Assembly: GCA_963796705.1 (NCBI GenBank)
Contig: CAWCMK010000007.1
Location: 6,641 to 70,640, forward strand
Origin: an uncultured Solirubrobacterales bacterium
Lineage (GTDB): Bacteria; Actinomycetota; Thermoleophilia; Solirubrobacterales; 70-9
Reading direction: 5' to 3'
Length of the DNA: 64,000 nt
The translations under genes and the position numbers were made by a program. Position 1 is the first letter of the stretch. Every line of letters begins with the position of its first letter. Below are positions 9,486-29,491 of the stretch, in pieces. The notes beneath the pieces were generated by a model. The model saw only the letters and a program-made list of their open reading frames with translations, was not told where the DNA came from and did not search any database.

Positions 9486-9517
9486 GGGCGTCGAGGCTAA
9501 GTGTTGCCCCGACGCCC
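9486..9517. terminator. GC-rich hairpin in a convergent intergenic region, a possible bidirectional I-shaped terminator
   Basis: GGGCGTCG (9486-9493) pairs with CGACGCCC (9510-9517), and further GGC/GCC pairs are possible inside the loop. There is no U-tract on either strand. Confidence 0.3.
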
Positions 9518-9609
9518 CGAGTCACCTCACATCACGGCGCCGCCCAGGGAAGTGACGGGAGCCGATCTACGGGATCCCTGCTGTGCGATCTCGGAAAGTA
9601 CCGCACATT
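9486..9609 (-). ncRNA. Candidate small RNA (or leaderless micro-ORF transcript) driven by the orphan consensus promoter
   Basis: The predicted TSS at ~9609 is 7 nt downstream of the -10 TACAAT. The ~125-nt transcript runs to the 9486-9517 hairpin and contains a 5' stem UGUGCG...CGCACA. The longest reading frame is a 13-codon ATG ORF starting at 9608. This is purely predictive. Confidence 0.3.
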
Positions 9610-9615
9610 ACAAAA

Positions 9616-9644
9616 ATTGTAAGCTACAGTACTTCAGCTGTCAA
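9616..9644 (-). promoter_or_regulatory. Consensus sigma70/SigA-type promoter with no annotated gene behind it
   Basis: On the minus strand: TTGACA (9644-9639), 17-nt spacer, TACAAT (9621-9616). It sits in a local AT-rich island in a ~70% GC genome. The perfect palindrome TTACAA-AAA-TTGTAA (9608-9622) overlaps the -10 and the TSS. Confidence 0.55.
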
Positions 9645-9796
9645 GGGGAGCGGCCCCGCCAGTGTCGGCTTGATTGCAGCTAGGCTCGGTGGCGCACCTT
9701 GAAGGGCCGGAAAGTTACATGCGGCGAACGCCCGGTACCGGCGACGGTTTAGGTGGCTTCGAATCGCCGTTCGATCTTGCCCGGTGAGGCGCTCGA

Positions 9797-12553: not shown

Positions 12554-15500
12554 CACTGTCCTCCCCCACTCCGGCCGTGCGAGCGCCTCTTGCCTTGTCG
12601 GTGCTTACGATGGTGCTTCCTGCGGTGGTGAGGCTTGACGCACTGCCCGTGACGCTTGACCTTGCCCTTGGGGCAGGTCTTGGTCGGTTCGTTCCCGGGG
12701 ACATGGTTGCCGCCGGTGCCGGTGATTGTGTTGACGTTCTGCGGGGCCGGCGTCGGGCTGCTGGCGCCGTGACACTCGTCCGAAGCTTTGCAACTGGGCG
12801 GCGGCGGCACATATGGGAAGCCGCCGTTTTCGCGGGCGTCATAGACCTTGACCAAGCTGCCGTTGATGTCCTGCGGCACCAGCGTGTCGCGGGTGAAGAA
12901 GTAGGCGTCGGTGCCGTCCGCAGTGGCGCTCAGCAGGCTCGTGTTGAAGGGGCTCACGCCGGTCGAGATCAGGCTCGTCTTGCCGTTCTCCCACTCGTAG
13001 ACGTCTTCGCGATTGTCGAGATCACTCGGCACCAGCGGATCGGTCGAGTTGAAGAACACCCGTCCGTCGTCGGTTAGGCTGAGTCCGTTGCGGGCGAGGG
13101 ACGCTTCGCCGGTCGATCGAGCGTTGGTCGGAGTGCACGAGACGCAGGCGAGCCCTTCGCCCGTAGCGTCGTAACGGAAGACCTCGGCGTGCCTGCCGTT
13201 GATGTACCCGGTCAGCGGGATGGTCGAGGTGAAGACCGCGTCGTCCCCGTTCGGGGTGATCTGGAAGTCGCCCGTGTGCCGAGTGCCGCTTTCGTTGACT
13301 GAGTCGACCACCAGCGGGCTATCGGTGCGGGGGTCGGGCGCCAGCACAAGCGGGCCGAAGCTCGCCACGTTCGCGCCTTCGGAGCCGGCGTTGGTCGCGT
13401 ACAAATTGCCGGCCGAGCTGACCGCAACCGACGTCGAGTTGCTGAGTACCTTTGCTCCGACATCCGGCCCGGGAGCCCTGCGGCCGTCGGCGTGGAAGCG
13501 CAGGATCTTGTTGCCCTCATCGACGTACACTTCGTGGCGAGTCGGATCGGCGAACATCTCGGTCGCGTTGGAGACTTCCCCCGCCCCGAATGTTTCCGTG
13601 GGGTTGCATTCCGAGTTGCACGTTGAGCCGTTGGGCAGAATCACGCGGCCGCTGCTGTCGAAGGCGAAGCGCGCGACTTCAACGCCACCGAAGCCGACGT
13701 AGAGCGTGCCCGTGGTCGGGTCGACCGCGACCCCTGTCTTCGGGGGAGATTCGTATTCCCAGGTCGAGATGATGGTCGAGCCTTTGCCCTTCTGCCAACG
13801 CTCGATGTATCCGTAATAGCCCTCGTAGTAGACCCGTCCCTGATTGTCGACTGCGATGCCGATCGGCTGAGGAGCGCCGTCGACGTAGTTCCCGGCAATG
13901 AACGTCCCGTCTTCTTCGTATTCGAAGACTCGGTTGGCCGAGTTGTTTTCCTGGTGAATCGCTATGTAGAGCACGCCATTTGGGCCCACCGCGATCCCGG
14001 CGAATTCGTGGCCGAGGTTGGGTTCGAATTCCCCGTTGTTCTGCCAGCTCGTGATCAGGTGGCCTTCGGCGTCGTACTTGCGGATTACCTGTTGGTTGCC
14101 ATCGGCCACGTAGACGTCGCCGTCTGAGGGCCCGCCGGAGTTATCGACCGCGACGAATTCCGGGTTTTCGGTCGCGCCGAAGGTGCCCTTGAATTGGTGT
14201 TCTTCCAGTGCCGGGTTGGGCCCGGTGGCGCCCGACTCCAGCGTCGAGACGAATTGTGGCGTCGCCGATCCCGGCTGGTGGAGATAGAGATTGGGCTGGT
14301 TGGCCTCGCCATCCTGAGGTTCGCTGCTGCCGTCGAGCAGTTCGGGGCTGAGGAAATAGATGCTGCCGTTTTGGGCGGCGACGCCGCCGCCGCCGCCGAC
14401 AGCGACGGCGTCGCAGTTGGCGGTTGCGGCCGTCGTGTTCCAGTGCTGGTTGACGGAGTTAGGAAGCGGGCTGCAGCTGTCTGAGTTGCCCGAACCGCCC
14501 GAGCCCTTGGAAACGAGGTGCAGGGTGGCCGAGGAGGCTCCGACCTGTGCTTCGTAGACGTCGGCCGAGTTGTCGCTGTCTTCGCCGTTGAGGCGGTCGG
14601 CGGTCGTGAAGTACACCGTGGACCCGTCTTCGGTCATCCCGTCGTAAAAGGCGCCGCTCGTCGTCCCCGGCGTCAGGTCGACGGTTTTCGACGAATCGCC
14701 GATGTTCATGTACAGGTGCCAGTAGCGGTTCCCCTTCGAGTCCTTGGAGATCAGCTGCCCGATCACGACCCGCGAGCCGTCGGCCGAGACGTCGAGCTCG
14801 GCGAGGCCGTCCGAGGTGCAGTCCATCAGGCATGGGATGCTGCCGCCGCCGGGCAGCTTCGAGATAGCGTGGGTCGATTTGGTGGCGAGGTCGCGGTCGT
14901 AGATTGCCGGGCTGCCGGCGCCGCTCTCGAATTCCGAGCTCGAGCCGAAGATCAGGTGCTTGCCGTTGGCCGAGACGGGCTTCTTGACGAGCATGGCCGC
15001 GGTGGCGCTGGGGCCCGCGTTCAGCGATCCGGCCATTCCCTGAACGAGTTCCCCGTTCGGGAGGGCGACCGGAACGCCGGTCGTACCGTCTGCGAAACAG
15101 GGTGAGCAGAGCCCGGAGCCGCCGAAGGCGAAGGTGTCCAGCGAGGCATCGGCCCCGGCCAGCGGCGAGGCGAACGATTCGGCCGAGTAGGGCAGGTTTG
15201 CCGGGATGCCGACGTAGGAGGTGCTCCAGCCGTCAGCACCTCGGGTGGCGACGTAGGGATCGAGGCCGTGGTTCGTCGGGTGTCCGCTGCCCGGGATCGC
15301 GCCGTCGTGAACCCCGTAGAGAACGCGGGTCGGGTCTTGCGCGTCGGGATAGCCACCGAACGGTTCCTGTTCGGCATTCAGATAGGACTCGACGTCATAT
15401 CCGCCGGCGTTCGCCGCGGAGACGAGCTCGTAGGCGCGGCAGTCGGCGAGCAGCGCGGCGCCGGTCTGCTGGCGGACGTGGGCGTTGGCGCACTTGTCTT

Positions 15501-17103
15501 CGAGGACCGGCGTGTAGGGGAACGTCGTGAAAGTCTCTTCGGTGGATTCGGAGGTTCCGCTCTGATTCGTCGCAACGATCACGTAGTGATAGGTCGTCCC
15601 GGCCTGTAGGCCGGTCGCTTTCGTTGTTTCCGCGATCGAGACAAGCCCGGCGCCGACCGAGGGGCTCTCCGGAGTTTCATCGCAGGTTTCCGGTTCCGTC
15701 GTGCAGTCGCCGGTCCCGTAGAGGACGTGGTAGGTCGTCGGCGCGCCTTCCGGTGTGATTTCGAAATGGAAGACGACGCTGTCGGAGTGGACGTCGGTGA
15801 TGTAAGGGTCTTCGACGACCGCCTGTTCGGAGGGAACGACTTCCTGCTCCTTGGTGCGAACGAATCCGTTGCTGTTAGCGACCTTCAGGCGGGTGTAATA
15901 GGTGCTCCCCTTGGTTAGGCCGGTGAGCGTGGCGCTGACCTTGGTCGGTGAGCTCCCGGAGATCGCCTGCCCCCCTTCGCATGGGGCTTCTTCTTCGAAG
16001 TAGATGTAGCCGTATTCGATCACGGTCCCGTATTCGAAGACGCATTCGCTCGTGGTAACGCCGTCGGGGTTGACCGAGGCATCGAGCTTCAAGGAGGTGC
16101 CCGTGATTTCCGACGGCGGTTCGTTCTGGACGTCGGGCAGGGTCACTTGGGTCTGCGGGGAGAAGATGGCAATTCTGTTTTCGTAGGCCAGGTAGTAGTA
16201 GCCGTTGACCCCGTTCATCGCGACCCAGCGCGGTTCCCCTTCATAGAGGAGGCCCGGCAGTTCGTTCCCGTGGGGATCGTATTCGACGCCTTCTTCGTAT
16301 CTGGCGGAGAACACGATCCCGGAGACAGGATCGACGTTGAAGACGTTCGAGAAACCCGCCGGCAGGCTTTCGATCACTTCACCGCTCAGGGTGAACTTCA
16401 TCAACCCGTGGCCTTCGAGCCCTCCCTGGTAGTCGATGAGTTCGTTGTTGGGCCCGGCCTGCAGTCGATAGGAGTAGCCGTACTGGCTCATGTCGACGAC
16501 GTTCCCGGTTTTCACGCCTTCCGGGTTGTATTCGTAGGCACGCTGCGAGAGAGGGGTGCCGGTCAGGAAGAAGTTCCCGGTGACCGGGCTGACCGCCATG
16601 TCGTCGGCGCCGTAGGGCAGCGGGAAGTTTCCGCCGACCGGCGCCCCGCTCGGTTCGAAGGCCCAGACATGGCTATCGATGAAGGAGTAGTCGAGGTAGA
16701 TGCGTCCCTGGTGCGGTCCGCCCGAGTTGTCCACGTCGAGCACCGGAGTCGCGCATCCGCAGGTGTCTTCGGGCGGGACTCCCATGTTGAGCACGTTGGT
16801 GCCATTGGCCGCCGGATCGGTGAACGGCAGGGGTTCGCCCTCCGAGTTGAATTTGAAGAGATTGAGGCCGCTCTGTGTCGTGACGGCGTAGACGTCTCCG
16901 GTCTGCTGGTCAACGGCGATGCTCGAGACTCCGCTCAAGGTGGTCGCCGCCGGCGAGCCGTTGAAATATTTTTCGAATTCGTGAGGCGTGTACTGGACCG
17001 CCTCCGCCGGGGCGGTTGTGCAGAGTGGCACGGCCGTCGCCAGGCAGGCGCCGATGATCGCCAGGCGGATGCGCCGCCCGAGCTTCACTTTCGAACCCGT
17101 CAT
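12553..17103 (-). CDS. Giant secreted protein C (1516 aa), paralogue of A: beta-propeller, Fn3-like, PD40/TolB-like repeats and an extra NHL-like propeller, with a polybasic C-terminal tail
   Basis: Signal peptide RIRLAIIGACLATAVPLCTTAPAEA. Fn3-like signatures (ECVFEYGTVIEYGY, TYHVLYGTG...TTYHYVIVATN). Junction motif CANAHVRQQ...LADCRAYELVS. NHL-like VYVADGNQQVIRKYDAEG. PD40-like DDGRVFFNSTDPLVPSDLDNREDVYEW. C-terminal CKASDECHG plus a K/R/H tail. The ATG at 17103 overlaps the stop of B (TGATG), with AGGAGG 8 nt upstream. Confidence 0.9.
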   Translation of the reverse strand: MTGSKVKLGRRIRLAIIGACLATAVPLCTTAPAEAVQYTPHEFEKYFNGSPAATTLSGVSSIAVDQQTGDVYAVTTQSGLNLFKFNSEGEPLPFTDPAANGTNVLNMGVPPEDTCGCATPVLDVDNSGGPHQGRIYLDYSFIDSHVWAFEPSGAPVGGNFPLPYGADDMAVSPVTGNFFLTGTPLSQRAYEYNPEGVKTGNVVDMSQYGYSYRLQAGPNNELIDYQGGLEGHGLMKFTLSGEVIESLPAGFSNVFNVDPVSGIVFSARYEEGVEYDPHGNELPGLLYEGEPRWVAMNGVNGYYYLAYENRIAIFSPQTQVTLPDVQNEPPSEITGTSLKLDASVNPDGVTTSECVFEYGTVIEYGYIYFEEEAPCEGGQAISGSSPTKVSATLTGLTKGSTYYTRLKVANSNGFVRTKEQEVVPSEQAVVEDPYITDVHSDSVVFHFEITPEGAPTTYHVLYGTGDCTTEPETCDETPESPSVGAGLVSIAETTKATGLQAGTTYHYVIVATNQSGTSESTEETFTTFPYTPVLEDKCANAHVRQQTGAALLADCRAYELVSAANAGGYDVESYLNAEQEPFGGYPDAQDPTRVLYGVHDGAIPGSGHPTNHGLDPYVATRGADGWSTSYVGIPANLPYSAESFASPLAGADASLDTFAFGGSGLCSPCFADGTTGVPVALPNGELVQGMAGSLNAGPSATAAMLVKKPVSANGKHLIFGSSSEFESGAGSPAIYDRDLATKSTHAISKLPGGGSIPCLMDCTSDGLAELDVSADGSRVVIGQLISKDSKGNRYWHLYMNIGDSSKTVDLTPGTTSGAFYDGMTEDGSTVYFTTADRLNGEDSDNSADVYEAQVGASSATLHLVSKGSGGSGNSDSCSPLPNSVNQHWNTTAATANCDAVAVGGGGGVAAQNGSIYFLSPELLDGSSEPQDGEANQPNLYLHQPGSATPQFVSTLESGATGPNPALEEHQFKGTFGATENPEFVAVDNSGGPSDGDVYVADGNQQVIRKYDAEGHLITSWQNNGEFEPNLGHEFAGIAVGPNGVLYIAIHQENNSANRVFEYEEDGTFIAGNYVDGAPQPIGIAVDNQGRVYYEGYYGYIERWQKGKGSTIISTWEYESPPKTGVAVDPTTGTLYVGFGGVEVARFAFDSSGRVILPNGSTCNSECNPTETFGAGEVSNATEMFADPTRHEVYVDEGNKILRFHADGRRAPGPDVGAKVLSNSTSVAVSSAGNLYATNAGSEGANVASFGPLVLAPDPRTDSPLVVDSVNESGTRHTGDFQITPNGDDAVFTSTIPLTGYINGRHAEVFRYDATGEGLACVSCTPTNARSTGEASLARNGLSLTDDGRVFFNSTDPLVPSDLDNREDVYEWENGKTSLISTGVSPFNTSLLSATADGTDAYFFTRDTLVPQDINGSLVKVYDARENGGFPYVPPPPSCKASDECHGASSPTPAPQNVNTITGTGGNHVPGNEPTKTCPKGKVKRHGQCVKPHHRRKHHRKHRQGKRRSHGRSGGGQ

Positions 17104-19850
17104 CAGCCGGTCCTCCTCGCCGAGCTCGCGCGCCTATGTCGGCTGCGGTTGGCTTGTTTGCCACATGACAGGCGGATCTTCGGCCGCGTGTTGGCGCGCC
17201 GATTGCTCTGGCCCGTCATTTCCACTGTCGCCCGCCGGACGTGCGAGCAGAGGTTTTCGGCGCTGGTCTGCAGGAGGCCGCGCTTGCCTCCGAGCAAGCT
17301 CAGCGTGAACCTGGTCACAGGCACGTCGGGGACCGTCTGGAAGCTGGTCCTCAACCCGCCGTTCTTGCTGCTGACGACGCCGTCAAGATTGACATCGACC
17401 TGGCCTTTGAGCGCGGCGAGGACGTCGGGCAGCTTGTGCCCGTACCCGGTGGCGAGGTAGACGGTTCCTTCCAGCGGCTTTTCGAGCAACGGGGATTCGG
17501 CGCGCGCGCTGCCCATCACGGAGTTGGCGGGACAGCTTTCGGCGGCAAATTGGACCTTGGTGCAGGTGTTGCCGATGTGGCCGTTGTCCAGGATCAACGC
17601 TGGCGGCATCGTCACAACGGCCTTCGCGATGTTCGCTTCGCCAGGCTTCGCTGTCAGAGTCGCCGTGAGCGCCGGGTTCTGGGTCCGCTTGTTGCCGCCG
17701 CGGAGCCGCAGGGCGAGCTTTGGCCCGAACGGCAGTTCGGAGCAGTTGGCAGCCTGGAACGGCACCGCCGGGCTGGCTTCGCCTCCCTGGTCCCCGAAGA
17801 CCCGGGCCTGCAGCGAGAACCGGTCGCAGTTGGTCGGGTTGAGAGTAAAACCGGAGCGGTCGAGGTTGATCAGGACCTGCCGCAGCCGCAGCGGGACGCC
17901 GTCGACGATCTGAGGCAAGGGATCGGAGACGGCCGTCAGCTGGGCGCTCGTCGGATCGACATGGATCGCGGCGCGAACCACGACGTTGCCGAGGTCGTAG
18001 GGCCCCGAGACGGCCGGCGTCACGACCGCCAGACTGAGCGGAGCGCCCTTGTAGGGGCCCGCCAGGTAGACCGAGCCCGGCAGGTGCACCGGGTGGTCCC
18101 CGGCGCCGGCGGCGGTCGAGGAGCTCCCGATCCTGGAGCTGGCCGGGCAGCGCTGGCTGGCGAGCTCTTCGAGGCCCGAGACGGTGGTCGAGGCGGCGGC
18201 GAGGGTCGAGTCGGGGCAGTAGGTGACACCCGCCAGGGTGGCGCTGAAACCGGGGGGCGTGGTCACGTCCACCCCGGTCAGGTTCTGTTCGCCGTCAGCG
18301 CGATCCAGGGTCAGCGAGAAGGGAGAGTGCTGGCCCGCGGTCCGGTCGGCGACACCGCCGTGGAAGCTCGAGTTGAAGGAGCGCACGCCATTCGAGCAGC
18401 CGCTACCGCCCGGCCCGCTGGCGAGGGTGAAGTACTGGGTCGAGGTCTGTTCAGAGATCCCGGCGTCCCAGGGGGTGAAGGTGCTGCTCACCCCGTAGGT
18501 TCCACACTGGGTCGGCGTCGCCAGCAAAGCGCGTTCGGACCCGAAGAAGTGCATGTTGAATTCGGAGAACGGGGTTTGCGGCAGATCCTGGAAGGAGATG
18601 GTCAGCTGCCCCGTCCGTTCGTCGGCGATCACCGAGCCCGCCAGCTTGACGTGGACGTTGTAGCCATTGGCGGTGAGGATCAGCCGGTAGCGATCACCGG
18701 GCAGCGGGGTCCCCAGGTAGATGTAGCCGGGTATCGGCCCGGGCAGGGCCGAACTGTTGACGCTCAGGGTCCCGACCTTCGAGTCCTCGGGGCAGTGCGC
18801 TTCTTCGCGGGTACCGATCGAAGCTTCGGCGTTCGAGCAGGAGGTCTTCCCGTCGGCGGCGTTCGGATTGATGGTGAGGCCGGCCGGCAGGGCCACGGTC
18901 GTGCCGCGAATCTCCGACGGCGAGGAGACGTTCGGGCTCGACTGCTGCGGGACCTGGAGGTCGACGTCGAGCCCGGAGGGGCTGTCGGTCGCGGTGCCGG
19001 TCGGCTGCGCGTAGAGGCTCGGGTTGAAGGTCAGCTGGTCGCAGCCCGTGGTCGGCGGGTACGGGGTGGTGGCGTTGGTCACGCCTCTGTCGTAGGAGGT
19101 GATGCTGACGTTGGCCGCCAGGTTCTGCTGGTCGCAGGTCGTCGGATTGCTGAGGAACGCCTTTTCGGGCGCGTTCGATCGGGTCGGTGGGTTCTGGCCT
19201 TCGAGGAACGAGTCCCACCCGGTCGGGAAGCGTTCGGCGTCGTTTTCCGAGGCTGCCGGCACGCCCCAGAGCTTCTCTTCGACGAAGGCGAGCGGCAGGA
19301 GGTGGGTGATGTTGACCGTGGTCACGTCGAGGCCGTAGTCGCTCTCGGTCCGCGAGTTGATCGACTGGAATATCGGGAAATGCAGGAACGGGAAGGTCAT
19401 GCCGATCAGGCCGGCATCGCCCGGATGGGGTTCGAGGTTGTATACGGCGATCAGACCGAAGCCTTCGGTGCCCGGCGGTTCGGCGTTGACGCTGATGGTC
19501 GCCGTCCCGACCTGTGTCTCGGGCGGGCAGTTTTCGGTGGCGAAGTCTTCCGCGTCACAGGTCGGCGTCGCGTGCGGGTCGCCGATCACCCCGGGAGGCA
19601 TTTCGACGTTGATATCCCTGGCATCCTGACAATCGCAGGTGGGAGGAGGGATGTGCTGGGTATAGCGATTTCCCACCCAGACCACGGTTTCGAGATTCGG
19701 GTGCCCGCCGGCCTGGGTGTTCGAGGGAGTCACTTCGAACTGGTAGATCGGGGAGTCCGCGGCAGCGCGCCCCGGCGCCAGTGCGGCGAGCAGGGCGACG
19801 GCGGCGATCGCGGTCGCGCAGAGCACGGGGATGATGCGCTTGCGTGTCAT
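17103..19850 (-). CDS. Giant secreted protein B (916 aa), paralogue of D
   Basis: I take the start at ATG 19850 (MTRKRIIPVLCATAIAAVALLAALAPGRAAA, a clean signal peptide). The ORF-track extension to 20198 overlaps the end of gene A and is low-complexity. Motifs TQAGGHPNL, DSPSGLDV, GQLTISFQDLPQTPFSEF, KGAPLSLAVVTPAVSGPYDLG. The protein ends ...RLSCGKQANRSRHRRASSARRTG. Confidence 0.85.
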   Translation of the reverse strand: MTRKRIIPVLCATAIAAVALLAALAPGRAAADSPIYQFEVTPSNTQAGGHPNLETVVWVGNRYTQHIPPPTCDCQDARDINVEMPPGVIGDPHATPTCDAEDFATENCPPETQVGTATISVNAEPPGTEGFGLIAVYNLEPHPGDAGLIGMTFPFLHFPIFQSINSRTESDYGLDVTTVNITHLLPLAFVEEKLWGVPAASENDAERFPTGWDSFLEGQNPPTRSNAPEKAFLSNPTTCDQQNLAANVSITSYDRGVTNATTPYPPTTGCDQLTFNPSLYAQPTGTATDSPSGLDVDLQVPQQSSPNVSSPSEIRGTTVALPAGLTINPNAADGKTSCSNAEASIGTREEAHCPEDSKVGTLSVNSSALPGPIPGYIYLGTPLPGDRYRLILTANGYNVHVKLAGSVIADERTGQLTISFQDLPQTPFSEFNMHFFGSERALLATPTQCGTYGVSSTFTPWDAGISEQTSTQYFTLASGPGGSGCSNGVRSFNSSFHGGVADRTAGQHSPFSLTLDRADGEQNLTGVDVTTPPGFSATLAGVTYCPDSTLAAASTTVSGLEELASQRCPASSRIGSSSTAAGAGDHPVHLPGSVYLAGPYKGAPLSLAVVTPAVSGPYDLGNVVVRAAIHVDPTSAQLTAVSDPLPQIVDGVPLRLRQVLINLDRSGFTLNPTNCDRFSLQARVFGDQGGEASPAVPFQAANCSELPFGPKLALRLRGGNKRTQNPALTATLTAKPGEANIAKAVVTMPPALILDNGHIGNTCTKVQFAAESCPANSVMGSARAESPLLEKPLEGTVYLATGYGHKLPDVLAALKGQVDVNLDGVVSSKNGGLRTSFQTVPDVPVTRFTLSLLGGKRGLLQTSAENLCSHVRRATVEMTGQSNRRANTRPKIRLSCGKQANRSRHRRASSARRTG

Positions 19851-19881
19851 CACGGGGATCAGCGTCTCGCTTGCGATCTGG

Positions 19882-22800
19882 CTAGGCACGGTTGTTCCCC
19901 CGCTTGTGCTTACGATGGTGCTTTGCCTTGTGCTTCCTCCGCTTCTGCTTGGGCTTCGACTTGTGCGCGCTCGGGTTGGGCGCGTTGCCGCGCGAGCCGA
20001 GGTCGCCTTCGCTGGTGACCGTCGGGGCGGCGGGCGCGGCGTTGCCTTCGCCATGGCACTCATCGGCGGCTTCGCAGGGCGCCAGGGCCGGTTCGTAGGG
20101 GAAGCCGCCGTCGGTGCGGGCGTCGTAGTAGGCGAGGAACGGGCCGTTGTGGTTCTGCGGCACGAGGATGTCGCGGGTCGAGAAGTAGACGTTGACACCG
20201 TCGGCGCTGACCCCCGCGAGCCCTTCTTCGCCGGCGTTGCCGGAGCCGCCGTAAATCGCGTGTCTGGTCAAGGTCGTCCCGGTCCCGGTGGTGATCAGCT
20301 GGGGCCGGCCTTCGGTGTACTCGTAGACGTCCAGCTGTTCGTTGGTGTCGGTCGGGACCAGGGGATCCTTGGTGGCGAAGAACGTCCGCCCGTCGTTCGA
20401 CATGAAGATCCCCATTTTGCTGGCTTCGACGTTGAAGGCCGGGGGCTGGCCGTCGGGGCGGCAGGAGACGCAGATGAGCTTCCGCGCGGCCGGTTCGTAG
20501 GCGTACATCTCCTTGAGGCCCACGTTGTCGTAACCGGTCAGCTTGGTGGTGGTGATGAAAGCCATGTGACCGTCGTTAGGCGAAACCTGCATACGGGTGA
20601 TCGGGCCGTGTTCCCCGCTGGACGGGTTCAACGAGGCGACGAACTGCGGCTCGCCGTTGCGGTAGACGTAGAGGTTCTCCCTGTTCGGCGTCCCCTTCCT
20701 GCCGTCGAGCTGTTCGGGCGAGTAGAAGTAGATTTCGCCGGATTCAGAGGAAATCGAGTTGTCGGTGAGAGTTTCGCCGGTGACCGCCGCGACACCACAT
20801 TGGGTCGTCCAGGTTGCGGTGCATTCGTCGCTGTTGCCGCTGCCTTCGGCTTCGGGCCCGGCTTTCGAGACGAGCGTCAGTTTGTCCCCTTCCTCACTCC
20901 ACATGTAGAGGTCGACGCTTTCGTCGGTGTCTTCGGAGGTGAGCTGTTCCGGCGAGGTGAAGAAAACCCTGGTGCCGTCGGCGGTCATGCCAACGTAGTT
21001 GACGTCTTTTTTGTCCGAGACTTCGTAGGTCACCGCGTCGTTGACCCTCATGTAGAGACGGGTGGGCTTCGGCGGTTCGTTGAAGTGGTTGTAGGGCGCG
21101 CTCGCCGTCGACATCAGGATGTGCGTCCCGTCCGTCGACACACCCGGGTGCGCGGGCGATGCCATCGAACCGTAGCCGTATCCACCGTATTCGGGATTTA
21201 CGCCTGGGAAGAGAATGGCCTCTTCGGTAGCGCTGGTGTTGCCGGGCTCCTGTTGGATGTCTTCGCCGTTCGCATCTTTGGAGATCAGCGCCGTCGTGCC
21301 GGTCGCCGCGTTGTAGTCATACGCCGAGCCGACCCCGGTCGTGAGCCCTCCGGGTGCGAATGCGATGTTGGTCGAGGAAATTGCCAGGTGGCTCAAATCC
21401 GGCGAGGGCTGGAACGCGCCTTTGCTTTCTTCGACATTCGGGATGCTTTCGAAGTTCTGTGGCCACCTTTCCAGCAGGTTTCCTTCACTGTCCCAGACGT
21501 ACGGGATGCTATGGGGCGGCTGCGGTTCTCCTTCGAAGCCACCGTTTTCGCGGAAGTCCAGGAACTTGCTGAAGTTCGCGTTGGCAAATAGCGCGCCTGC
21601 GGCGGTTCCTTCATATCCCCGCAATCCGACCAGGTGGGTTTTCCAGCCGGTGTTCGTGCGGGTCGCGATGTAGGTGTCGGCGCCAAGAGCATTGGTCGGT
21701 TCGGTTCCGTTGACGCCACCGAGGTATCCGTTGAAGGCGAACCTCGGGGGACTGACCGCGTAAGGATCCGCGTCGGGCTCGGCGTTGGTCAGCTCGACAT
21801 TGCCGGTTTCTTCGGGGGAGACGAGCTCAAAGGCGCGACAGTCCGGCAGGTACTGGCTTTCGTTCTGCTGGCGCACGGTCGAGTTAGGGCAAGTCTGCGG
21901 GTAGAAGTTGAAGCTCTGGTCTTCGGTGCGAACCGCACCCCATTTACTTTCGGCGACGACCCTGAAGTGATAGAGAACTCCCTGGAGTTCTGTGAGGTGC
22001 ACCACGACGGCTTCGGAGGCGTTGCCGGCGGGTAGCGTTTGGCTCGGAGTGACCGAGCCATACTGGGTCGTCGGCCCGTATTCGATGTAATAGGTTGTTT
22101 CGAAGCCGTGCGGATTGACCTCTGCGTCGATGTCCGCCGACGTGGCCGTCAGATGGCTGCTCGTGGCGGCTTCGATCGAGGGCAGTTCGTAGGTTTTGAA
22201 GCTCTTATCGGTCCCCTTGGAGACGCCGATCGAGTTTTCGGCGACGACGCGATAGTGATAGGTGAACCCGGGTTCCAGGCCCGTGATTTCGGAGGAGACG
22301 TGGGTCAGTTCCGTCGTCACGCCGGCGTCTTCGCCAGGCGGAATCGCGGTCTTGTGACCGTAGGCGGTGGTCTGGCCCCATTCAAAGTAGTAATGGGTGT
22401 CTTCTCCGGTCCCTTCGTATTTGGCGTTGAGAAGGGCCGAGTTCTGGGTAATTTCCGTAGCCGCTTCGGTGCCAAGGCCTTTGACGTTGTGCGGTGTGAT
22501 GGTCTTGTCGGCACCCCTGCCGATGACGTGCGGTTCACCGTTTGTCAGCACAAGGCGGTAGTGGTAGGTTTCCTCGCCAACGAGTCCCGGCAGGTTCGCG
22601 TGGACCGTCTCTTCGCTTGAAATCGGCGTCGACTCCGAGCAGTTCTGTTTGCTGCCGTAGGCGCTCGTCAGGCCGTATTCGAAATAGCATTCGGTGATCG
22701 GACCGACCCCATTGGGATCCGCAGTGCCGCTCACTTCGCTGTTCCCCGTCGGTTCGCCGGTTGTCGCCTTCGGGGTGGTTAGCCCGAGGTATTCGACTAT

Positions 22801-23730
22801 GTAGCCGCTGGAGCCCGAGCCGATGGTGACGAAGAGGGTGTCGGTCGCTTCGTCGACGGCGAGGCCGTGCCCTCCGTTTTCGGGGAGGGTGATCGTTTCA
22901 ACGAGACTCGCGGTTTCGGTGTCATAAACATTGACAGTCGTGCCGCCGTTGCCAACGTAGAGCTTGTGTTCGGCGTCGTTGACGGCGAGGCCAGGTTCGC
23001 CTGAAGGCGCCGGGAAGCTGAGTTTGGTCGTGTAGCCGCTTTCGGCGGTGAACTTGACCAGCTGGCCGCCGCCGTAGGAGGCGGCATAAACGTCACCGTT
23101 TGCGTGATCGACTGCAAGCTTGCAGAGGCTGAAACCGATTTCGATCGATCCAGTGGCGGTCCCAGCAGCCGAGTATTTGAAGACTTTGTGTTGCGTGTAG
23201 TCGCCGGCCCAGGGTCCGCCACCCGGCCCGACGTCAACGCCGCAGATTTCGCCGCCGCCAGGGATGACGACCGGCCACGGCGCGCCGAGCGCGTTACCGC
23301 TCGAGTTCCAGCCGTAGATCCTTTCGCTGCTGCCGGACTGGACGCCGTAGATGTTGCCGGCCCCCGAGCTTTCCACTTCGATGTCGGGTTCCCCGCATTC
23401 GGTGCTGATCCCGGCACTGAAGGGGAATTTGCCGCCGAGTGGAGTCGCCGATCCGGAGCTGATGGCGAGGCCGTAGATCTTGCCTTCAGAGGCGAGGTAG
23501 AGGTCCCCGGAAGAGCCGTTGTAGGCGATGTGGCAGCCAAAGCCGACACCGCTCGATTTCGGGCCTTCCTTGCCGTATTCGCCGGTGACTTCGGTATGTT
23601 CGCTGGCGAGGCTCTGTGACACCGGCAGGGCGAGCAGCAACCAGGCCGCGGCGCAGAAGGTTGCGACACCGGCGCGCACCGATGCGGTCCTCAGGCGATC
23701 GCCGCGGCCCAGGTTCTCCTCTGCCCTCAA
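19882..23730 (-). CDS. Giant secreted protein A (1282 aa): N-terminal beta-propeller-like region, three Fn3-like units, PD40/TolB-like repeats and a polybasic C-terminal tail
   Basis: TTG start at 23730 with AAGGAG 7 nt upstream. Signal peptide VATFCAAAWLLLALPVSQSLA-SE. Fn3-like signatures ECYFEYGLTSAYG, HYYFEWGQTTAYG, TYYIEYGPTTQYG, each followed by (T/L)YH(Y/F)R(L/V)V. Junction CPNSTVRQQ...LPDCRAFELVS. PD40-like NDGRTFFATKDPLVPTDTNEQLDVYEY. C-terminal CEAADECHG and KSKPKQKRRKHKAKHHRKHKRGNNRA. Confidence 0.9.
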   Translation of the reverse strand: MRAEENLGRGDRLRTASVRAGVATFCAAAWLLLALPVSQSLASEHTEVTGEYGKEGPKSSGVGFGCHIAYNGSSGDLYLASEGKIYGLAISSGSATPLGGKFPFSAGISTECGEPDIEVESSGAGNIYGVQSGSSERIYGWNSSGNALGAPWPVVIPGGGEICGVDVGPGGGPWAGDYTQHKVFKYSAAGTATGSIEIGFSLCKLAVDHANGDVYAASYGGGQLVKFTAESGYTTKLSFPAPSGEPGLAVNDAEHKLYVGNGGTTVNVYDTETASLVETITLPENGGHGLAVDEATDTLFVTIGSGSSGYIVEYLGLTTPKATTGEPTGNSEVSGTADPNGVGPITECYFEYGLTSAYGSKQNCSESTPISSEETVHANLPGLVGEETYHYRLVLTNGEPHVIGRGADKTITPHNVKGLGTEAATEITQNSALLNAKYEGTGEDTHYYFEWGQTTAYGHKTAIPPGEDAGVTTELTHVSSEITGLEPGFTYHYRVVAENSIGVSKGTDKSFKTYELPSIEAATSSHLTATSADIDAEVNPHGFETTYYIEYGPTTQYGSVTPSQTLPAGNASEAVVVHLTELQGVLYHFRVVAESKWGAVRTEDQSFNFYPQTCPNSTVRQQNESQYLPDCRAFELVSPEETGNVELTNAEPDADPYAVSPPRFAFNGYLGGVNGTEPTNALGADTYIATRTNTGWKTHLVGLRGYEGTAAGALFANANFSKFLDFRENGGFEGEPQPPHSIPYVWDSEGNLLERWPQNFESIPNVEESKGAFQPSPDLSHLAISSTNIAFAPGGLTTGVGSAYDYNAATGTTALISKDANGEDIQQEPGNTSATEEAILFPGVNPEYGGYGYGSMASPAHPGVSTDGTHILMSTASAPYNHFNEPPKPTRLYMRVNDAVTYEVSDKKDVNYVGMTADGTRVFFTSPEQLTSEDTDESVDLYMWSEEGDKLTLVSKAGPEAEGSGNSDECTATWTTQCGVAAVTGETLTDNSISSESGEIYFYSPEQLDGRKGTPNRENLYVYRNGEPQFVASLNPSSGEHGPITRMQVSPNDGHMAFITTTKLTGYDNVGLKEMYAYEPAARKLICVSCRPDGQPPAFNVEASKMGIFMSNDGRTFFATKDPLVPTDTNEQLDVYEYTEGRPQLITTGTGTTLTRHAIYGGSGNAGEEGLAGVSADGVNVYFSTRDILVPQNHNGPFLAYYDARTDGGFPYEPALAPCEAADECHGEGNAAPAAPTVTSEGDLGSRGNAPNPSAHKSKPKQKRRKHKAKHHRKHKRGNNRA

Positions 23731-23842
23731 GCTTCTTCTCCTTGACCGGCCGTCTTCCCCTGCCCGTGATTCCCTGTGGTGGGCGTGGGGCCCCTGGCCC
23801 TGTCGATTGATGTCCCAGCCCGCTCCCTAGCGAGCAAGCGGC

Positions 23843-23872
23843 ACTGTAAACGGGTTCGTGCATTTTTGTCAA
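23843..23872 (-). promoter_or_regulatory. Predicted promoter of the A-B-C-D operon
   Basis: On the minus strand: TTGACA (23872-23867), 18-nt spacer, TACAGT (23848-23843). This predicts a ~105-nt leader before the AAGGAG/TTG start of gene A. The -35 lies inside motif site 1. Confidence 0.55.
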
Positions 23873-23881
23873 GCCCGGTAC
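23867..23881 (+). promoter_or_regulatory. Motif site 1: TGTCAAGCCCGGTAC (candidate TetR operator overlapping the operon -35)
   Basis: One of four sites matching TGTCAAG-N4-GTAC with identical spacing. It lies in the divergent region between gene A and the first double-TetR gene. Confidence 0.5.
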
Positions 23882-23890
23882 GCGAGAAAA

Positions 23891-23905
23891 TGTAAAAGTC
23901 GGTAC
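23891..23905 (+). promoter_or_regulatory. Degenerate second copy of the motif: TGTAAAAGTCGGTAC
   Basis: Same length and spacing as site 1, 24 bp downstream (start to start), with 2 mismatches in the heptamer. It ends 5 nt before GTG 23911. Confidence 0.3.
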
Positions 23906-23910
23906 CAGAA

Positions 23911-25308
23911 GTGTCAGCGATCGGACATTTCGCTGTCATATCTCGTACACGCCAAATAATGGCCTGCGGGTTATGGTCTGCCGCCGGGATGGTGCCTGGG
24001 GAGCTAGGTTCTCAGCCGGTCGAGCCGCTTTTCCCTCAGCTCATCGAGGGACTGCGGGGCATGCCTCCTGCCGCGGTCGCAGAGCACCAGCGCATCCGGC
24101 TCGAGGCGGCGATGGTCGAGGCGGTGGCCCGTCATGGATACGCCGGGACAACCCTGCGCGAGCTCGTTCGGATCGCAGGCGTTTCCAAGTCGACCTTCTA
24201 CGACCACTTCGAGACCAAGCAGGACGCGTTCCTTGCAACCGCGGACTCGATCGTGACCCAGATCAGCGAACGGGTGCGGGTCGCCTATCGGGAGGGCTCA
24301 GACCATCGCGACCGACTCGTCCGGGCGCTCGCCACCTTCATGGATCTGGTCGCCAGCGAGCCGCAGGCCGCCACACTGACCATCGTCGAGACGCTCAGCC
24401 TCGGCCGGGCTGGGATCGAGGCCCGCGATCGCGGCTCGGAGGTATTCGAAGAGGCCTTGCGGAGCAGCTTCGAAAGCTCGGCCTCCAAGGTCGAGGTCCC
24501 GCTGCGCACCGTCAACGCGATAGCCGCCGGATTTCGCGGCGTCGTCTACCGCAACCTGCGCGCCGGCACCGCCAGCGCACTTCCCGGCCTCGTCGAGGCA
24601 TTGGCCGACTGGGCCCTCGGATATCAGGTGGCACCGAACGCCGCGGTGCGGCGCGCCGCCGTGGCGGCGGCCAGGCCGGCACCGGCCGCCGAGCGGAACG
24701 CCGAGGCACTCGATTGGAGCGAGCCTCCGGACAGCCCTCGCAGTCGTGTCCAGCTGAGCCAGCGCGAGCGAATCGTCCGCGCAATCGGCCTCCTGGTCGT
24801 CGAGAGAGGCTATGAGACACTGACGATTCCCGCGATCTCCGCGACCGCCGGGACATCGAATCAGACCTTCTACGAACACTTTGAAAACAAACGCGAGGCC
24901 TTCGTGGCGGCATTTGACGACAGCGCCGCCGAGGCCCTGGAGGCGACAACCCGTGCCTTCCGAACCTCCCAGGGCCCGGAGGCAATCGGGGTCGCACTGC
25001 GCGCGATGCTCCAATACATCGCCGCCCACCCGCTCTTCGCTCGGCTTGCCTTCTTCGATCTGCAGACCGCCGGCCCGGCGGCGCTGGACCGCGCAGATTC
25101 CGTGATGAGAAGCTTCGGTGCATTCCTGGAACCAGGCGTGGCTCCCGAGGAGCTCAACGTCGGGCCGTCGGAGACCGTCCTGCAGGCGATAACCAGCGGT
25201 GCCTGGGGCGTAATCCAGCATGAGCTTGCACACGAGAAAATCGAGACGCTGCCCGAGCTCGCCCCAGAGCTTGCCCAGATAGTCCTTGGGTCGCTACCCT
25301 CGACCTAG
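23911..25308 (+). CDS. Single-chain double TetR-family regulator (two complete TetR units in one polypeptide)
   Basis: First HTH: GYAGTTLRELVRIAGVSKSTFYDHFETKQDAF. Second HTH ~220 aa later: GYETLTIPAISATAGTSNQTFYEHFENKREAF. Each is followed by a helical ligand-domain-sized region. The start is uncertain (GTG 23911, ATG 23959 or later). Confidence 0.8.
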   Translation: MSAIGHFAVISRTRQIMACGLWSAAGMVPGELGSQPVEPLFPQLIEGLRGMPPAAVAEHQRIRLEAAMVEAVARHGYAGTTLRELVRIAGVSKSTFYDHFETKQDAFLATADSIVTQISERVRVAYREGSDHRDRLVRALATFMDLVASEPQAATLTIVETLSLGRAGIEARDRGSEVFEEALRSSFESSASKVEVPLRTVNAIAAGFRGVVYRNLRAGTASALPGLVEALADWALGYQVAPNAAVRRAAVAAARPAPAAERNAEALDWSEPPDSPRSRVQLSQRERIVRAIGLLVVERGYETLTIPAISATAGTSNQTFYEHFENKREAFVAAFDDSAAEALEATTRAFRTSQGPEAIGVALRAMLQYIAAHPLFARLAFFDLQTAGPAALDRADSVMRSFGAFLEPGVAPEELNVGPSETVLQAITSGAWGVIQHELAHEKIETLPELAPELAQIVLGSLPST

Positions 25309-25356
25309 GCTCCAGCGGGCGCCGGTCCCCCGCAACTTGGAGCTTGGGAGCGGATC

Positions 25357-25371
25357 TGTCAAGCTGCGTAC
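25357..25371 (+). promoter_or_regulatory. Motif site 2: TGTCAAGCTGCGTAC, abutting the ATG of the second double-TetR gene
   Basis: Exact match to TGTCAAG-N4-GTAC. The GTAC is immediately followed by ATG 25372. Confidence 0.45.
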
Positions 25372-26688
25372 ATGGCGCCAGAAGCAACCGGAGATAGAGC
25401 CATCCAAGGAAGATCTCGGGCTGAGCCGGCCAGCCTGGGTCGCACCGTCACCGAACGGCGCCAGCGGTCCAGGTTGGAAGCAGCGATGGTCAGGTCGGTG
25501 GCTCAGCACGGTTACGCGGAAACGACGGTGGCCGAGCTGGTCCGGGTCGCCGCCGTGTCGAAGTCAACGTTCTACGCGCACTTTCGCGACAAGGAAGACT
25601 GCTTTTTCGTCACCCTCGACACGATCGTCGACGAAGTCAGCGCCAGGGTTGGAGTTGCCTTCCGCTCCCAGACCGGCCTCGAGCGGAGCCTCGCCGCGGC
25701 GCTCTCCAACTTCGCCGACTTCCTGGTCGGCGAAGCCGACGCAGCTTCGCTGGTCGTCGTCCACTCGCTCAGTCTGGGCGCGGCCGCGGTCCCCCATATC
25801 GAGCGCGCCGGCGAGGCCTTCGAACGAACGCTCCGCCAGAGCCTCGCCGAAGAGCCGATCGAGACCGGCCGGCCCTCGGAGCTCGCCGTTCGTGCGATCG
25901 TCGGCGGGATTCGCACGGTGATCTACCGGTGCCTTCGCGATCGACGCCCCGAGCAATTCATCGACTGGCTGGAGCCGCTGCTGAGCTGGGCCCTCTCCTA
26001 CGTCTCCGAGAGGGCCGGGACATACCCGATCGCGCAGCGGCCGCTGCCGGCGGAGGCGCTGGCCAACCCGGACCCCGACTACATCCCCTGGGATGAGCCG
26101 GCCGACAGCCCGCTGAGCCGCGAACGGCTGACCCAGCGCCAGCGGATACTCCGCGCCACCGCCCAGGAGGCGTCCCGTGTCGGCTATCCAAGCCTGACGA
26201 TCCCCACGATCTCGGCCGCTGCCGGAACCTCCAATCAGACCTTCTATGAGCACTTCGAGAGCAAGGAGCAGGCCTTCATCTTCGCCTTCGAGAAAGTGGC
26301 CAAACGAGCGATGGCCGCGGTATTTGCAGCGGCGCTGACCGAGAAGGATTGGCGGGCGGTCGTTGAAGCGGGCCTCCGCGGCTTTCTCGAGTATCTGGCC
26401 CATGAACCGCTCTTCGCCCGGCTCGCGTTCTTCGAGCTGCCAGCCGCCGGCGCCGCGGCCCTTAGTCACGGTGATTCCACCGTGCAGATGTTCACCTCCT
26501 TTCTCGCCCCCGAGGCGCTGCCGCCGGGCGTCCCGACCCTGCCGGCGGTTGAGGTCGAGGTGATCGGCGGCGCCATCTGGTGGACGATCCAGTGCGAGAT
26601 CGCGGCCGGAAACATTGAGAAGCTGCCGGATATGGCGGCCGCCATCTGCGACATCCTCTTCGTGCCCCTCTTGGCGCGCCAGGCGTGA
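25372..26688 (+). CDS. Single-chain double TetR-family regulator, paralogue of 23911..25308
   Basis: First HTH: GYAETTVAELVRVAAVSKSTFYAHFRDKEDCF. Second HTH: GYPSLTIPTISAAAGTSNQTFYEHFESKEQAF. It is colinear with the upstream paralogue throughout. Confidence 0.85.
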   Translation: MAPEATGDRAIQGRSRAEPASLGRTVTERRQRSRLEAAMVRSVAQHGYAETTVAELVRVAAVSKSTFYAHFRDKEDCFFVTLDTIVDEVSARVGVAFRSQTGLERSLAAALSNFADFLVGEADAASLVVVHSLSLGAAAVPHIERAGEAFERTLRQSLAEEPIETGRPSELAVRAIVGGIRTVIYRCLRDRRPEQFIDWLEPLLSWALSYVSERAGTYPIAQRPLPAEALANPDPDYIPWDEPADSPLSRERLTQRQRILRATAQEASRVGYPSLTIPTISAAAGTSNQTFYEHFESKEQAFIFAFEKVAKRAMAAVFAAALTEKDWRAVVEAGLRGFLEYLAHEPLFARLAFFELPAAGAAALSHGDSTVQMFTSFLAPEALPPGVPTLPAVEVEVIGGAIWWTIQCEIAAGNIEKLPDMAAAICDILFVPLLARQA

Positions 26689-27350
26689 TCAGCCGGCGAT
26701 TCGCCTGGCCTCGGCGGATCCCAGATAGGGGCTCAGCAGGATTTCGACGAGCTCTCGCTCGAGCCTCCCGACGGGCAGCGGCAGCTCGGCGAGCAGTGTC
26801 CCCCTGACCACATATGCGGCTCCCCCGACCAGCAGTGTCTCGGTCAGGGCCGGCAACCCTGCCGCCTCGGGGTTGCGCTCGCGCCCCTCGCGCAGCATCG
26901 GCACACCCGCTCCATCTCCGCGGCCTGCCGCTCGAGGATCACGGGGCCCGCGGCCAGCGCCTCGATTACGAAAAAGCGCGCCCGACTGGCGGTTTCTTCG
27001 ATGAACTCGAGGATCGCGGCGACCCCGACCCTGACACGCCTCGGCCAGTCATCGAGGGGGTCGATCGCGCCTGCCGCTTCACTCATCAGCCGCTCGAAGA
27101 AGGCGTCGTGGGCGGCGCTCAGACATTGGCCAGTGCTCTCGAAGTGCGCGTGGAAGACGGCCTCGGAGACGCCCGCGGCCGCGACGACGTCCCCGACGGT
27201 CGTCTCCGAGTAGCCACGTTCAGACGCGACCTTCGTGAAGGCATTGATGAGGCGCTCGCGCTGAGCCTGCGATTCGGGGCTCCCAGACCCGTTCTCGCCG
27301 ACCTCCCGCTCGCGACCGCCCGACTCGCGGCGTCGAGGGTCCCCTGTCAC
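26689..27350 (-). pseudogene. TetR-family regulator disrupted by a frameshift (ORF-track pieces 26844..27350 and 26689..26904)
   Basis: The N-terminal piece carries the HTH (GYSETTVGDVVAAAGVSEAVFHAHFESTGQCL). The C-terminal piece (PMLREGRERNPEAAGLP...LSPYLGSAEARRIAG) is in another frame, yet it aligns with the C-terminus of the paralogue at 27426..28067 (...AAGLPDALEQ...LSPYIGTEEARLAASA). The frames switch at GTGTG (26902-26906). Confidence 0.7.
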
Positions 27351-27358
27351 GGCGCGGC

Positions 27359-27388
27359 AGCTTACGCAGGCTTCACCGAAAATGTCAA
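27359..27388 (-). promoter_or_regulatory. Predicted promoter of the frameshifted TetR gene (near-leaderless)
   Basis: On the minus strand: TTGACA (27388-27383), 18-nt spacer, TAAGCT (27364-27359), then 8 nt before GTG 27350. Confidence 0.5.
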
Positions 27389-27397
27389 GAGCGGTAC
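27383..27397 (+). promoter_or_regulatory. Motif site 3: TGTCAAGAGCGGTAC
   Basis: Exact match to TGTCAAG-N4-GTAC. It overlaps the -35 of the promoter above. Confidence 0.5.
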
Positions 27398-27425
27398 ATC
27401 AAATCGATCGGCGATCGACGGTAAC

Positions 27426-28067
27426 TCAGGCGCTCGCGGCCAGCCGCGCCTCCTCGGTGCCGATGTAGGGGGAGAGAACCATCTCGATCGCTTCCGGTTC
27501 AACCTCGGCGAGCATCTCGCCCTCGTCGCCGAGCAGGTGACCACAGACGATCACCACGACTCCGGCGATCAGGACCTGCTCGAGGGCATCGGGGAGGCCG
27601 GCCGCGGGCGGGTAGAGCAGGCGCCCCTGCTTGAGCTGCGAAGCGGCGCGCTCGATGGAGGCGTAGCGGCGCTCAATTCCGGCCGGACCGACGCGCACCG
27701 CGTCGATCGCGAAGAGTCGCGCCACCGGCTCGACCTCGGCGATGAACTCAAAGACGGCGCGAATCGATGCCCTAACCCTCATCGACCAGTCCTCGATGTC
27801 CTCGCAGGCTTCGGCGACGTGTTCGAGCATCCGCTCCAAGAAGCGGTCGAACGCCGCCAGAAGGCACTGCTCGACGTTCTCGAAGTGAAGATCGAAGTCC
27901 TCCGTCGAGAGCCCTGCGGACCGCGCCACGGTCTCGCGATCAACGCCCCGCAGGCCACGCTCTGTGGCGATCCTGGTGGCAGACTCGATGAAACGCTCGC
28001 GCACCTCCGCCGGCGCCCACTCGGCCGTCGCCTGGGCTGAAACGCCTCCCACCATCAGATCCGGCAT
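27426..28067 (-). CDS. TetR-family transcriptional regulator (single unit)
   Basis: 213 aa with HTH region RERFIESATRIATERGLRGVDRETVARSAGLSTEDFDLHFENVEQCL. Paralogous to the frameshifted neighbour. Confidence 0.8.
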   Translation of the reverse strand: MPDLMVGGVSAQATAEWAPAEVRERFIESATRIATERGLRGVDRETVARSAGLSTEDFDLHFENVEQCLLAAFDRFLERMLEHVAEACEDIEDWSMRVRASIRAVFEFIAEVEPVARLFAIDAVRVGPAGIERRYASIERAASQLKQGRLLYPPAAGLPDALEQVLIAGVVVIVCGHLLGDEGEMLAEVEPEAIEMVLSPYIGTEEARLAASA

Positions 28068-28073
28068 GGGTCA

Positions 28074-28102
28074 ACAATGACCGGTACACATTCTCCTGTC
28101 AA
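28074..28102 (-). promoter_or_regulatory. Predicted promoter of TetR 27426..28067 (leaderless mRNA predicted)
   Basis: On the minus strand: TTGACA (28102-28097), 17-nt spacer, CATTGT (28079-28074), then 6 nt before ATG 28067. Confidence 0.45.
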
Positions 28103-28111
28103 GGAAAGTAC
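28097..28111 (+). promoter_or_regulatory. Motif site 4: TGTCAAGGAAAGTAC
   Basis: Exact match to TGTCAAG-N4-GTAC, in the divergent region between the TetR gene and fumC. Confidence 0.5.

Positions 28112-28177: not shown

Positions 28178-29491
<1,314 letters not shown>

Follow-up and report, generated by a model that had tools for sequence, protein, structure and literature searches.

The question raised by this locus is which protein, if any, reads a short directional DNA word that recurs in the control regions of a cluster of TetR-type regulator genes and of a neighbouring operon encoding giant proteins. The locus lies in a 64-kb stretch (hereafter, the window) of contig CAWCMK010000007.1 from an uncultured Solirubrobacterales bacterium. 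The word is TGTCAAG-N4-GTAC (15 bp; hereafter, the motif), which an earlier note on this DNA had proposed to be the shared operator joining an array of four TetR genes to the giant operon. The operon (9797..23730, minus strand; four open reading frames [ORFs] of 1282, 1031, 1516 and 919 aa) is the predicted regulated target. Divergent from it are the genes for two tandem double TetRs, T1 (23989..25308, plus strand) and T2 (25372..26688, plus strand); they are followed by those for two single TetRs on the opposite strand, T3 (26692..27350, minus strand) and the TetR-like T4 (27426..28067, minus strand). Judged from the sequence, the motif is probably the operator of a small regulon, read by T1 and T2, which would repress their targets by promoter occlusion.

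When both strands of the window were scanned, the exact motif was found four times, only on the plus strand: at 23867-23881 between the giant operon and T1 (site 1, TGTCAAGCCCGGTAC), at 25357-25371 directly ahead of T2 (site 2, TGTCAAGCTGCGTAC), at 27383-27397 upstream of T3 (site 3, TGTCAAGAGCGGTAC) and at 28097-28111 upstream of T4 (site 4, TGTCAAGGAAAGTAC). These are the coordinates listed in the earlier note, and chance predicts fewer of them, as it had also estimated: none of 100 dinucleotide-preserving shuffles of the window gave an exact match (0 expected). The degenerate fifth copy that it had placed 24 bp from the first was recovered at 23891-23905 when up to two mismatches were allowed, together with a match at 23934; both lie in the intergenic region between the giant operon and T1. 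The remaining TGTCAAG occurrences it had mentioned (9639 and 28633) indeed lack GTAC in register, the one at 9639 being the -35 of a separate minus-strand promoter. A position weight matrix (PWM) built from other genomes only ranked the four exact sites on top. They were followed by 28205-28225 on the other strand, which is a probable chance match within the fumarase gene (fumC) that comes after T4, then by 23934 and 23891, and lower in the ranking by a weak copy at 23912 (score 3.0). The giant operon-T1 region accordingly contains four tandem plus-strand copies, with start-to-start distances of 24, 21 and 22 bp: copy 1 (identical to site 1), copy 2 (TGTAAAAGTCGGTAC, 23891..23905), copy 3, which is degenerate here (TGTCAGCGATCGGAC, 23912..23926), and copy 4 (TGTCATATCTCGTAC, 23934..23948), immediately upstream of the T1 promoter. 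Orthologous copies are kept in 38 loci for copy 1 and in 20 loci for copy 4.

Conservation was assessed in 77 related loci from metagenome-assembled genomes of Solirubrobacterales, which were obtained by a profile scan with the double TetR and restricted to one genome per species. Together with locus L002 and the window, and after removal of duplicates, they amounted to 1.53 Mb of background DNA, in which strands were counted relative to the double-TetR gene. The exact motif was present 90 times, always on the double-TetR strand, whereas base composition predicts ~0.2 matches (own arithmetic). At up to one mismatch, the ratio of this strand to the other was 151 to 4, and with a PWM score of at least 8 it was 231 to 23. 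GTAC stood in register in 90 of the 165 occurrences of TGTCAAG. Unseeded counting of 7-mers in the 130-nt stretches preceding 70 single TetR genes returned CTTGACA in 45 of them (0.47 expected), and the next enriched 7-mer was (G/A)TGTACC. Two syntenic contigs, with a double TetR 76% and 74% identical to T2, carry the motif at all orthologous positions and in the same orientation; likewise, every orthologous position and orientation is retained in syntenic loci with a double TetR 74-79% identical to T2, and the motif is retained in most loci where the double TetR is only 40-58% identical to those of the window. Over all loci, the spacing of adjacent sites has maxima at 21-24 bp and 43-47 bp. 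Further giant operons in related loci, not adjacent to any TetR gene, are preceded by the same promoter and operator array. Phylogenetic footprinting, which the earlier note had suggested as a check, thus supports, at the level of sequence, a shared operator joining the TetR array and the giant operon.

Almost all double-TetR homologs stem from uncultured Solirubrobacterales (Thermoleophilia), and the motif is tightly linked, in ~60 loci from different genomes, to TetR genes. Given this linkage, it is hardly plausible that the site is bound by a DNA-binding protein whose gene lies elsewhere in the genome; moreover, genes of the TetR family usually control their own expression via operators within their promoters. 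A mobile element or repeat was likewise considered and ruled out, as the sites are found in syntenic promoters without flanking repeats.

With respect to promoters, the conserved sites fall into four classes. Class (a) comprises 53 sites upstream of a convergent single TetR gene, including sites 3 and 4 of the window. In 40 of these 53, the minus-strand TTGACA is followed after 16-19 nt (mostly 18) by TAnnnT, compared with 0.56% of random positions. The T3 promoter reads TTGACA-18-TAAGCT-8-GTG (-10 at 27364..27359) and the T4 promoter TTGACA-17-CATTGT-6-ATG (-10 at 28079..28074), both on the minus strand. Because the start codon lies within a few nucleotides of the -10, class (a) genes are read as leaderless, T4 from ATG 28067 and T3, leaderless or nearly so, from GTG 27350. 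Class (b) consists of the 38 sites at which copy 1 provides the -35 of the divergent giant operon, the -10 being TACAGT or TAAAGT; in 19 of the 38, TAnnnT is correctly spaced (again versus 0.56% of random positions). In the window, TGTCAA of copy 1 is the minus-strand TTGACA of TTGACA-18-TACAGT (23872..23843, -10 at 23843..23848; 10/12 matches in the promoter scan), from which a transcription start site (TSS) at ~23836 is predicted. Sites of the type of 1, 3 and 4 therefore present a TTGACA-like hexamer 16-19 nt upstream of a TAnnnT ahead of a gene, that is, the arrangement of a sigma-70-type promoter, and these features mark the minus-strand TTGACA as a genuine -35. The earlier note had named the same three -35 elements; for TTGACA-18-TACAGT the promoter scan agreed, and the other two were read in the sequence. 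An RNA-level element was rejected for sites 1, 3 and 4, since they are located upstream of the predicted TSS; Rfam gave no match.

Class (c) is made up of copies 2 to 4, which are internal to the array. Of these, copy 2, TGTAAAA-N4-GTAC (TGTAA-N6-GTA[CT]), is present at +22..25 in 18 of the 33 copy-1 loci, and copy 3, (T/C)GTCA-N6-GTAC, is visible in related loci at +45..47. Any TAnnnT in range on the minus strand accompanies just 7 of 32 internal array copies, and the 42 conserved sites outside the minus-strand -35 placement likewise include 7 with TAnnnT in range. Downstream of copy 4, TATGGT (23972..23977, plus strand) is a candidate -10 of the T1 promoter, 11 nt before ATG 23989, and TAT(C/G)GT is kept at this place in related loci; in a clade that has T1 only, the start codon abuts copy 4 in frame. 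Class (d), finally, is the site abutting T2, where ATG or GTG comes immediately after GTAC in all 10 orthologous loci, none of which has a minus-strand -10 at this site. In the window, GTAC ends at 25371 and thus abuts ATG 25372, as had been described; what had been overlooked is the overlap with an extended -10 and the +1 of a leaderless promoter. This plus-strand promoter reads TTGGAG (25337..25342)-17-CAAGCT (25360-25365)-6-A(25372)TG, the A of the start codon being the presumed +1, and TGTCAAGCT fits TGn plus -10. A plus-strand TTG-type hexamer occurs 17 nt upstream of CAAGCT in about two-thirds of the T2-orthologous loci, and TTGAAn, TTGCAA or TTGACC occupies the place of the -35 in ~6 of 9. 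The motif at T2 would therefore span TGn and the -10 and reach to position -1.

That TTGACA acts as the -35 with a correctly spaced TAnnnT at most sites, and that the T2 site matches TGn plus -10, would also be in line with strong promoters lacking any dedicated regulator, the motif then being a composite of promoter parts, either a consensus -35 together with a GTAC contact upstream of it or an extended -10. However, the same 15-mer occurs at incompatible positions, as -35 on one strand and as -10/+1 on the other, and the internal copies of the array, so rarely accompanied by TAnnnT, are kept too. Furthermore, among the 91 consensus-type promoters of the data set, 26 have no GTAC, and neither has the near-perfect promoter at 9644-9616. 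Because the 15-mer is kept in two incompatible promoter positions and in internal copies, the motif is regarded as an operator beyond a promoter element, and a promoter element as its sole function is very improbable.

If the motif is an operator, the bound protein could still be an activator of the class II type that overlaps the -35, in the manner of FasR, which is the closest among named TetRs. Indeed, the site is centred near -38 at three promoters, and the best NCBIfam similarity of all four TetRs, although far below cutoff, is to FasR, which is an activator. Yet the -35 within the site is already consensus TTGACA and should not require help, the T2 site is positioned at -15 to -1, where binding must block the polymerase, and a phased four-copy array spanning a divergent control region is typical of repression. 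For these reasons, we infer repression rather than activation and consider activation improbable.

Alignment of 151 sites yielded the extended consensus t-TGTCAAG-nnn-gGTAC-A-y-G-a. The description of the motif as an asymmetric 15-mer was confirmed; it had escaped notice, however, that position 16 is A in 104 of the 151 sites, and that with this position counted the word is a 16-bp pseudo-dyad, TGT-N10-ACA. Symmetry is limited to TGT/ACA. The inner halves always differ (one strand reads TGTCAA, the opposite one TGTACC, with CAAG and TACC unvarying), positions 4-7 and 10-13 are never complementary, and not a single symmetrised variant of the inner half-sites was found among >150 sites. With ~10 bp between the centres of its half-sites, the word has the geometry of one TetR dimer; it does not consist of the two equivalent inverted half-sites that make up a palindromic operator for a homodimeric TetR. 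Instead, oriented, non-palindromic sites are found at the promoters of T1, T2, T3, T4 and the giant operon. A full palindrome centred on GTAC (TGTCAAG-N4-GTAC-N4-CTTGACA), prompted by one site in locus L010, was rejected, as positions 20-26 are uninformative over the 151 sites.

The TetR array does comprise four regulator genes, as reported, but the earlier note had overlooked that two of them encode tandem double TetRs. Pfam TetR_N matches twice in T1 (465/439 aa; 439 aa from ATG 23989, with homology from residue 1) and twice in T2 (438 aa), and this tandem architecture would explain the asymmetry of the motif. The AlphaFold 2 model of T2 (predicted local distance difference test score 91; predicted template modeling [TM] score 0.87) is a single-chain pseudo-dimer. 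Its top match in Foldseek was 9b7y_A (432 aligned columns, TM 0.55/0.60, 14% identity), the sole full-length match in the PDB; the others cover one half each. The structure 9b7y was obtained by cryo-electron microscopy of Mce3R (Rv1963c) from Mycobacterium tuberculosis bound to DNA; this protein is one chain forming an asymmetric pseudo-dimer, with two unlike helix-turn-helix motifs (HTHs) on a non-palindromic operator (PMC11667970). Taken singly, the halves of T1 and T2 are similar to acyl-CoA sensors of the FadR/FasR type. The two recognition helices of the double TetRs (GVSKSTFY versus GTSNQTFY) are unlike each other, and both are at least 90% conserved across 88 double TetRs that share 28-100% identity. 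Since conserved but unlike helices match a near-invariant two-part site, the site was assigned to T1 and T2, which we infer from this conservation to be its readers.

The single TetRs of the T3/T4 type might instead read the operator as homodimers, via TGT-N10-ACA, the double TetRs then being nothing but co-regulated targets. Presence of the motif correlates with a single TetR gene in the locus, a site is located just upstream of 53 of 72 single TetR genes, and orphan double TetRs without the motif exist. However, the recognition helix of the single TetRs is only 20-40% conserved, hypervariable, often acidic (e.g., LSTEDFDLHF of T4, VTPEEFEAHF and TSQQQVEAHF) and often devoid of the conserved Tyr (T4, L002-L074), so that a single TetR is hard to reconcile with a nearly invariant word. 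The DNA-binding region of T4 is strongly divergent, no match to Pfam TetR_N being found in it at E ≤ 0.01. Unlike inner halves without symmetrised variants are also unexpected for a homodimer. Reading of the operator by the single TetRs is, thus, unlikely; the convergent single TetRs may no longer be specific DNA binders at all and may serve as partners or ligand sinks.

According to the operator model with T1 and T2 as readers, each of the two would be a single polypeptide folded as a pseudo-dimer, placing its two unlike HTH heads in successive major grooves ~10 bp apart, one on each half-site; with one head per unlike half-site, the directionality of the site would be explained. At the giant operon, T3 and T4, the bound protein would cover the -35 (about -30 to -45), and at T2 the extended -10 through the +1 region (-15 to -1), whereas the four copies at ~22 bp phasing, corresponding to two helical turns, would fill the divergent giant operon/T1 region. 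In this way, the regulators would autoregulate all four TetR genes and co-regulate the giant secreted-protein operon. A ligand would presumably release T1 and T2 from the DNA, and because both halves resemble FadR and FasR, it may, speculatively, be a lipid or acyl-CoA-like.

Several observations weigh against this model. Fourteen double-TetR paralogs, from loci without a single TetR, have the same helices but no motif within 450 nt upstream, and 13 of them have none within 10 kb either; gene family and motif are therefore not strictly coupled. Furthermore, the motif tracks the single TetR gene (55 + 14 concordant versus 11 + 7 discordant double TetR genes), a co-occurrence compatible with the single TetR as reader, which we read as reflecting that the single TetR gene is the most constant target. 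The dyad TGT-N10-ACA, weak as it is, could be used by a homodimer. The similarity to Mce3R (14% identity) is not above the level of the TetR family, and the proposed -10 of T2, CAAGCT, lacks the usual first T. Besides, in at least five of the motif-less paralogs (loci L045, L047, L050, L059 and L064), a perfect palindrome, GTTCGTTCGAACGAAC, precedes the estimated start of the double-TetR gene by about 30-90 nt (position ~9900-9970 of the locus); by eye only, its flank resembles a divergent canonical TetR gene. This palindrome suggests a second, conventional control layer on some members of the double-TetR family.

To our knowledge, Mce3R is the only double-TetR regulator characterised, and its operator is long and poorly defined. 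T1 and T2 share with it two TetR units per chain, the asymmetric pseudo-dimer and unlike HTHs, as judged here from the model, as well as the non-palindromic operator, autoregulation and several sites in the control region, as predicted here from sequence; in both cases, the regulator gene points away from a large operon with envelope or secreted functions. The sites themselves differ. Those of Mce3R are ~25 bp long and without a crisp consensus, two of them being 53 bp apart, whereas the operator here is a sharp 15-16 bp word, built into the -35 or the -10/+1 and repeated in arrays with a phase of 21-24 bp. Also unlike the Mce3R system, there are two double-TetR paralogs with the same reading heads in addition to single TetRs with degenerate heads. 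In sequence searches of the PDB, Mce3R was absent from the phmmer matches at E ≤ 0.001 and from the 60 best profile matches. The link is one at the level of the fold, with no detectably shared lineage, and independent duplication or fusion may account for it.

In comparison with classical TetR pairs (TetR-tetO, QacR, FadR of Bacillus, FasR, KstR/KstR2), the predicted footprint of ~15-16 bp, the half-sites one turn apart, the overlap of the operator with promoter elements, the presumed autoregulation and the divergent target operon are alike. Those regulators, however, are homodimers on palindromes, whereas the inner halves here are unlike and orientation is strict (151 versus 4). Tandem TetR proteins had been predicted before in Actinomycetes, 204 in number (PMC3711444), and have the same architecture and phylum as T1 and T2; that study catalogued proteins only, with no operator, and metagenome-assembled genomes of Solirubrobacterales were not then available. 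The present locus supplies a short, directional and sharply defined predicted operator with >150 natural instances and two clearly unlike half-sites, which makes directly testable the question of which head of a single-chain TetR reads which half-site. Which strand is read would decide whether this one DNA word, the presumed operator, also acts as a -35 or as a -10/+1. The locus also provides a first regulatory handle on the widespread, uncharacterised giant secreted proteins of soil Solirubrobacterales, and, for synthetic biology, a natural single-chain TetR together with its asymmetric site would be a compact, orientation-specific part.

Two of the regulator genes deserve comment with regard to their annotation. 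ATG 25372 is the only in-frame start that preserves helix 1 of the DNA-binding domain of T2. In the public annotation (P0001, 400 aa), the start is 38 codons too late, and most of helix 1 is lost; alignments with homologs of 84% and 76% identity extend to residue 1 of the query. The 400-aa version is, thus, probably too short. T3 had been described as frameshifted, and comparison with its ortholog in L002 confirmed a single shift, from frame -2 to -1, near 26905. Because an independent short-read assembly (L001) encodes the identical truncated product (168 aa, 100%), the gene there being called as two ORFs, T3 is probably a real pseudogene or the product of a programmed shift and not an assembly error.

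Homologs of the giant proteins are encoded divergently from a double TetR in 45 loci. All four proteins of the window begin with a signal peptide and end in a strongly basic tail rich in K/R/H (for example, ...HKSKPKQKRRKHKAKHHRKHKRGNNRA), which may be an undescribed sorting or wall-anchoring signal; a cysteine directly precedes the basic tail in two of the four. Searches with Pfam and NCBIfam returned just weak fn3, NHL and beta-propeller-like matches for these proteins, the fn3-like ones in two of the four. The G+C content of the giant operon (62-65%, window positions 10000-24000) is 5-8 points lower than that of its flanks (69-72%), and its AT skew is strongly negative.

Between the predicted TSS and the first giant ORF lies a structured 5' leader with three helices (23731..23836, minus strand), which belongs to the same control region and is not part of the operator. 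It is ~105 nt long and conserved in at least 27 operons (e.g., L016:9646-9763, L042:9647-9764 and L061:1102-1219), with conserved blocks in the order GTCCGCnGGGnnGCGGAC ... GACCGGGCCAGGGGCCCG ... CCTCC/GGAGG ... GGCCGGTC ... AAGGAGAGA. Its helices amount to 15 pairs, and 94.6% of the cells are paired. Covariation is seen in eleven pairs that changed on both sides, whereas shuffles gave 3.1 and slid controls 3-4 such pairs. The loops appear to hold GGG/GGA motifs. Rfam families gave no match when the window was searched at the gathering score, nor did 23690-23870 match any at E ≤ 1. The leader is therefore put forward as a candidate for a new cis-regulatory RNA. A multi-layer switch specific to the Solirubrobacterales lineage could be built on these elements, in which T1 and T2, with identical reading heads, would compete for phased arrays of the 16-bp pseudo-dyad, the convergent single TetR would be not a DNA reader but a regulated partner, acting as ligand sink or anti-repressor, and the leader RNA would be a second checkpoint; as a whole, this scheme is doubtful.

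The promoter without GTAC mentioned above is located downstream of the giant operon on the minus strand (9644..9616) and is near consensus (TTGACA-17-TACAAT). A motif-like sequence, TGTAATGTGCGGTAC, covers its predicted start (9612..9598), and an inverted partner, TGTAAGCTACAGTAC, is found at 9620-9634. As an extra site of the regulon, this cluster (9590-9645) was rejected, since its inverted copies are weakly motif-like and the related loci contain no related sequence. The 169 nt downstream (9440-9608, minus strand) have an unusually stable fold (z = -4.75), with a strong GC hairpin at the end. The longest ORF in this stretch, which contains no long one, has 24 aa, and a 13-codon ORF runs from the predicted start (by eye); the stretch may be a gene for a small RNA or a peptide.

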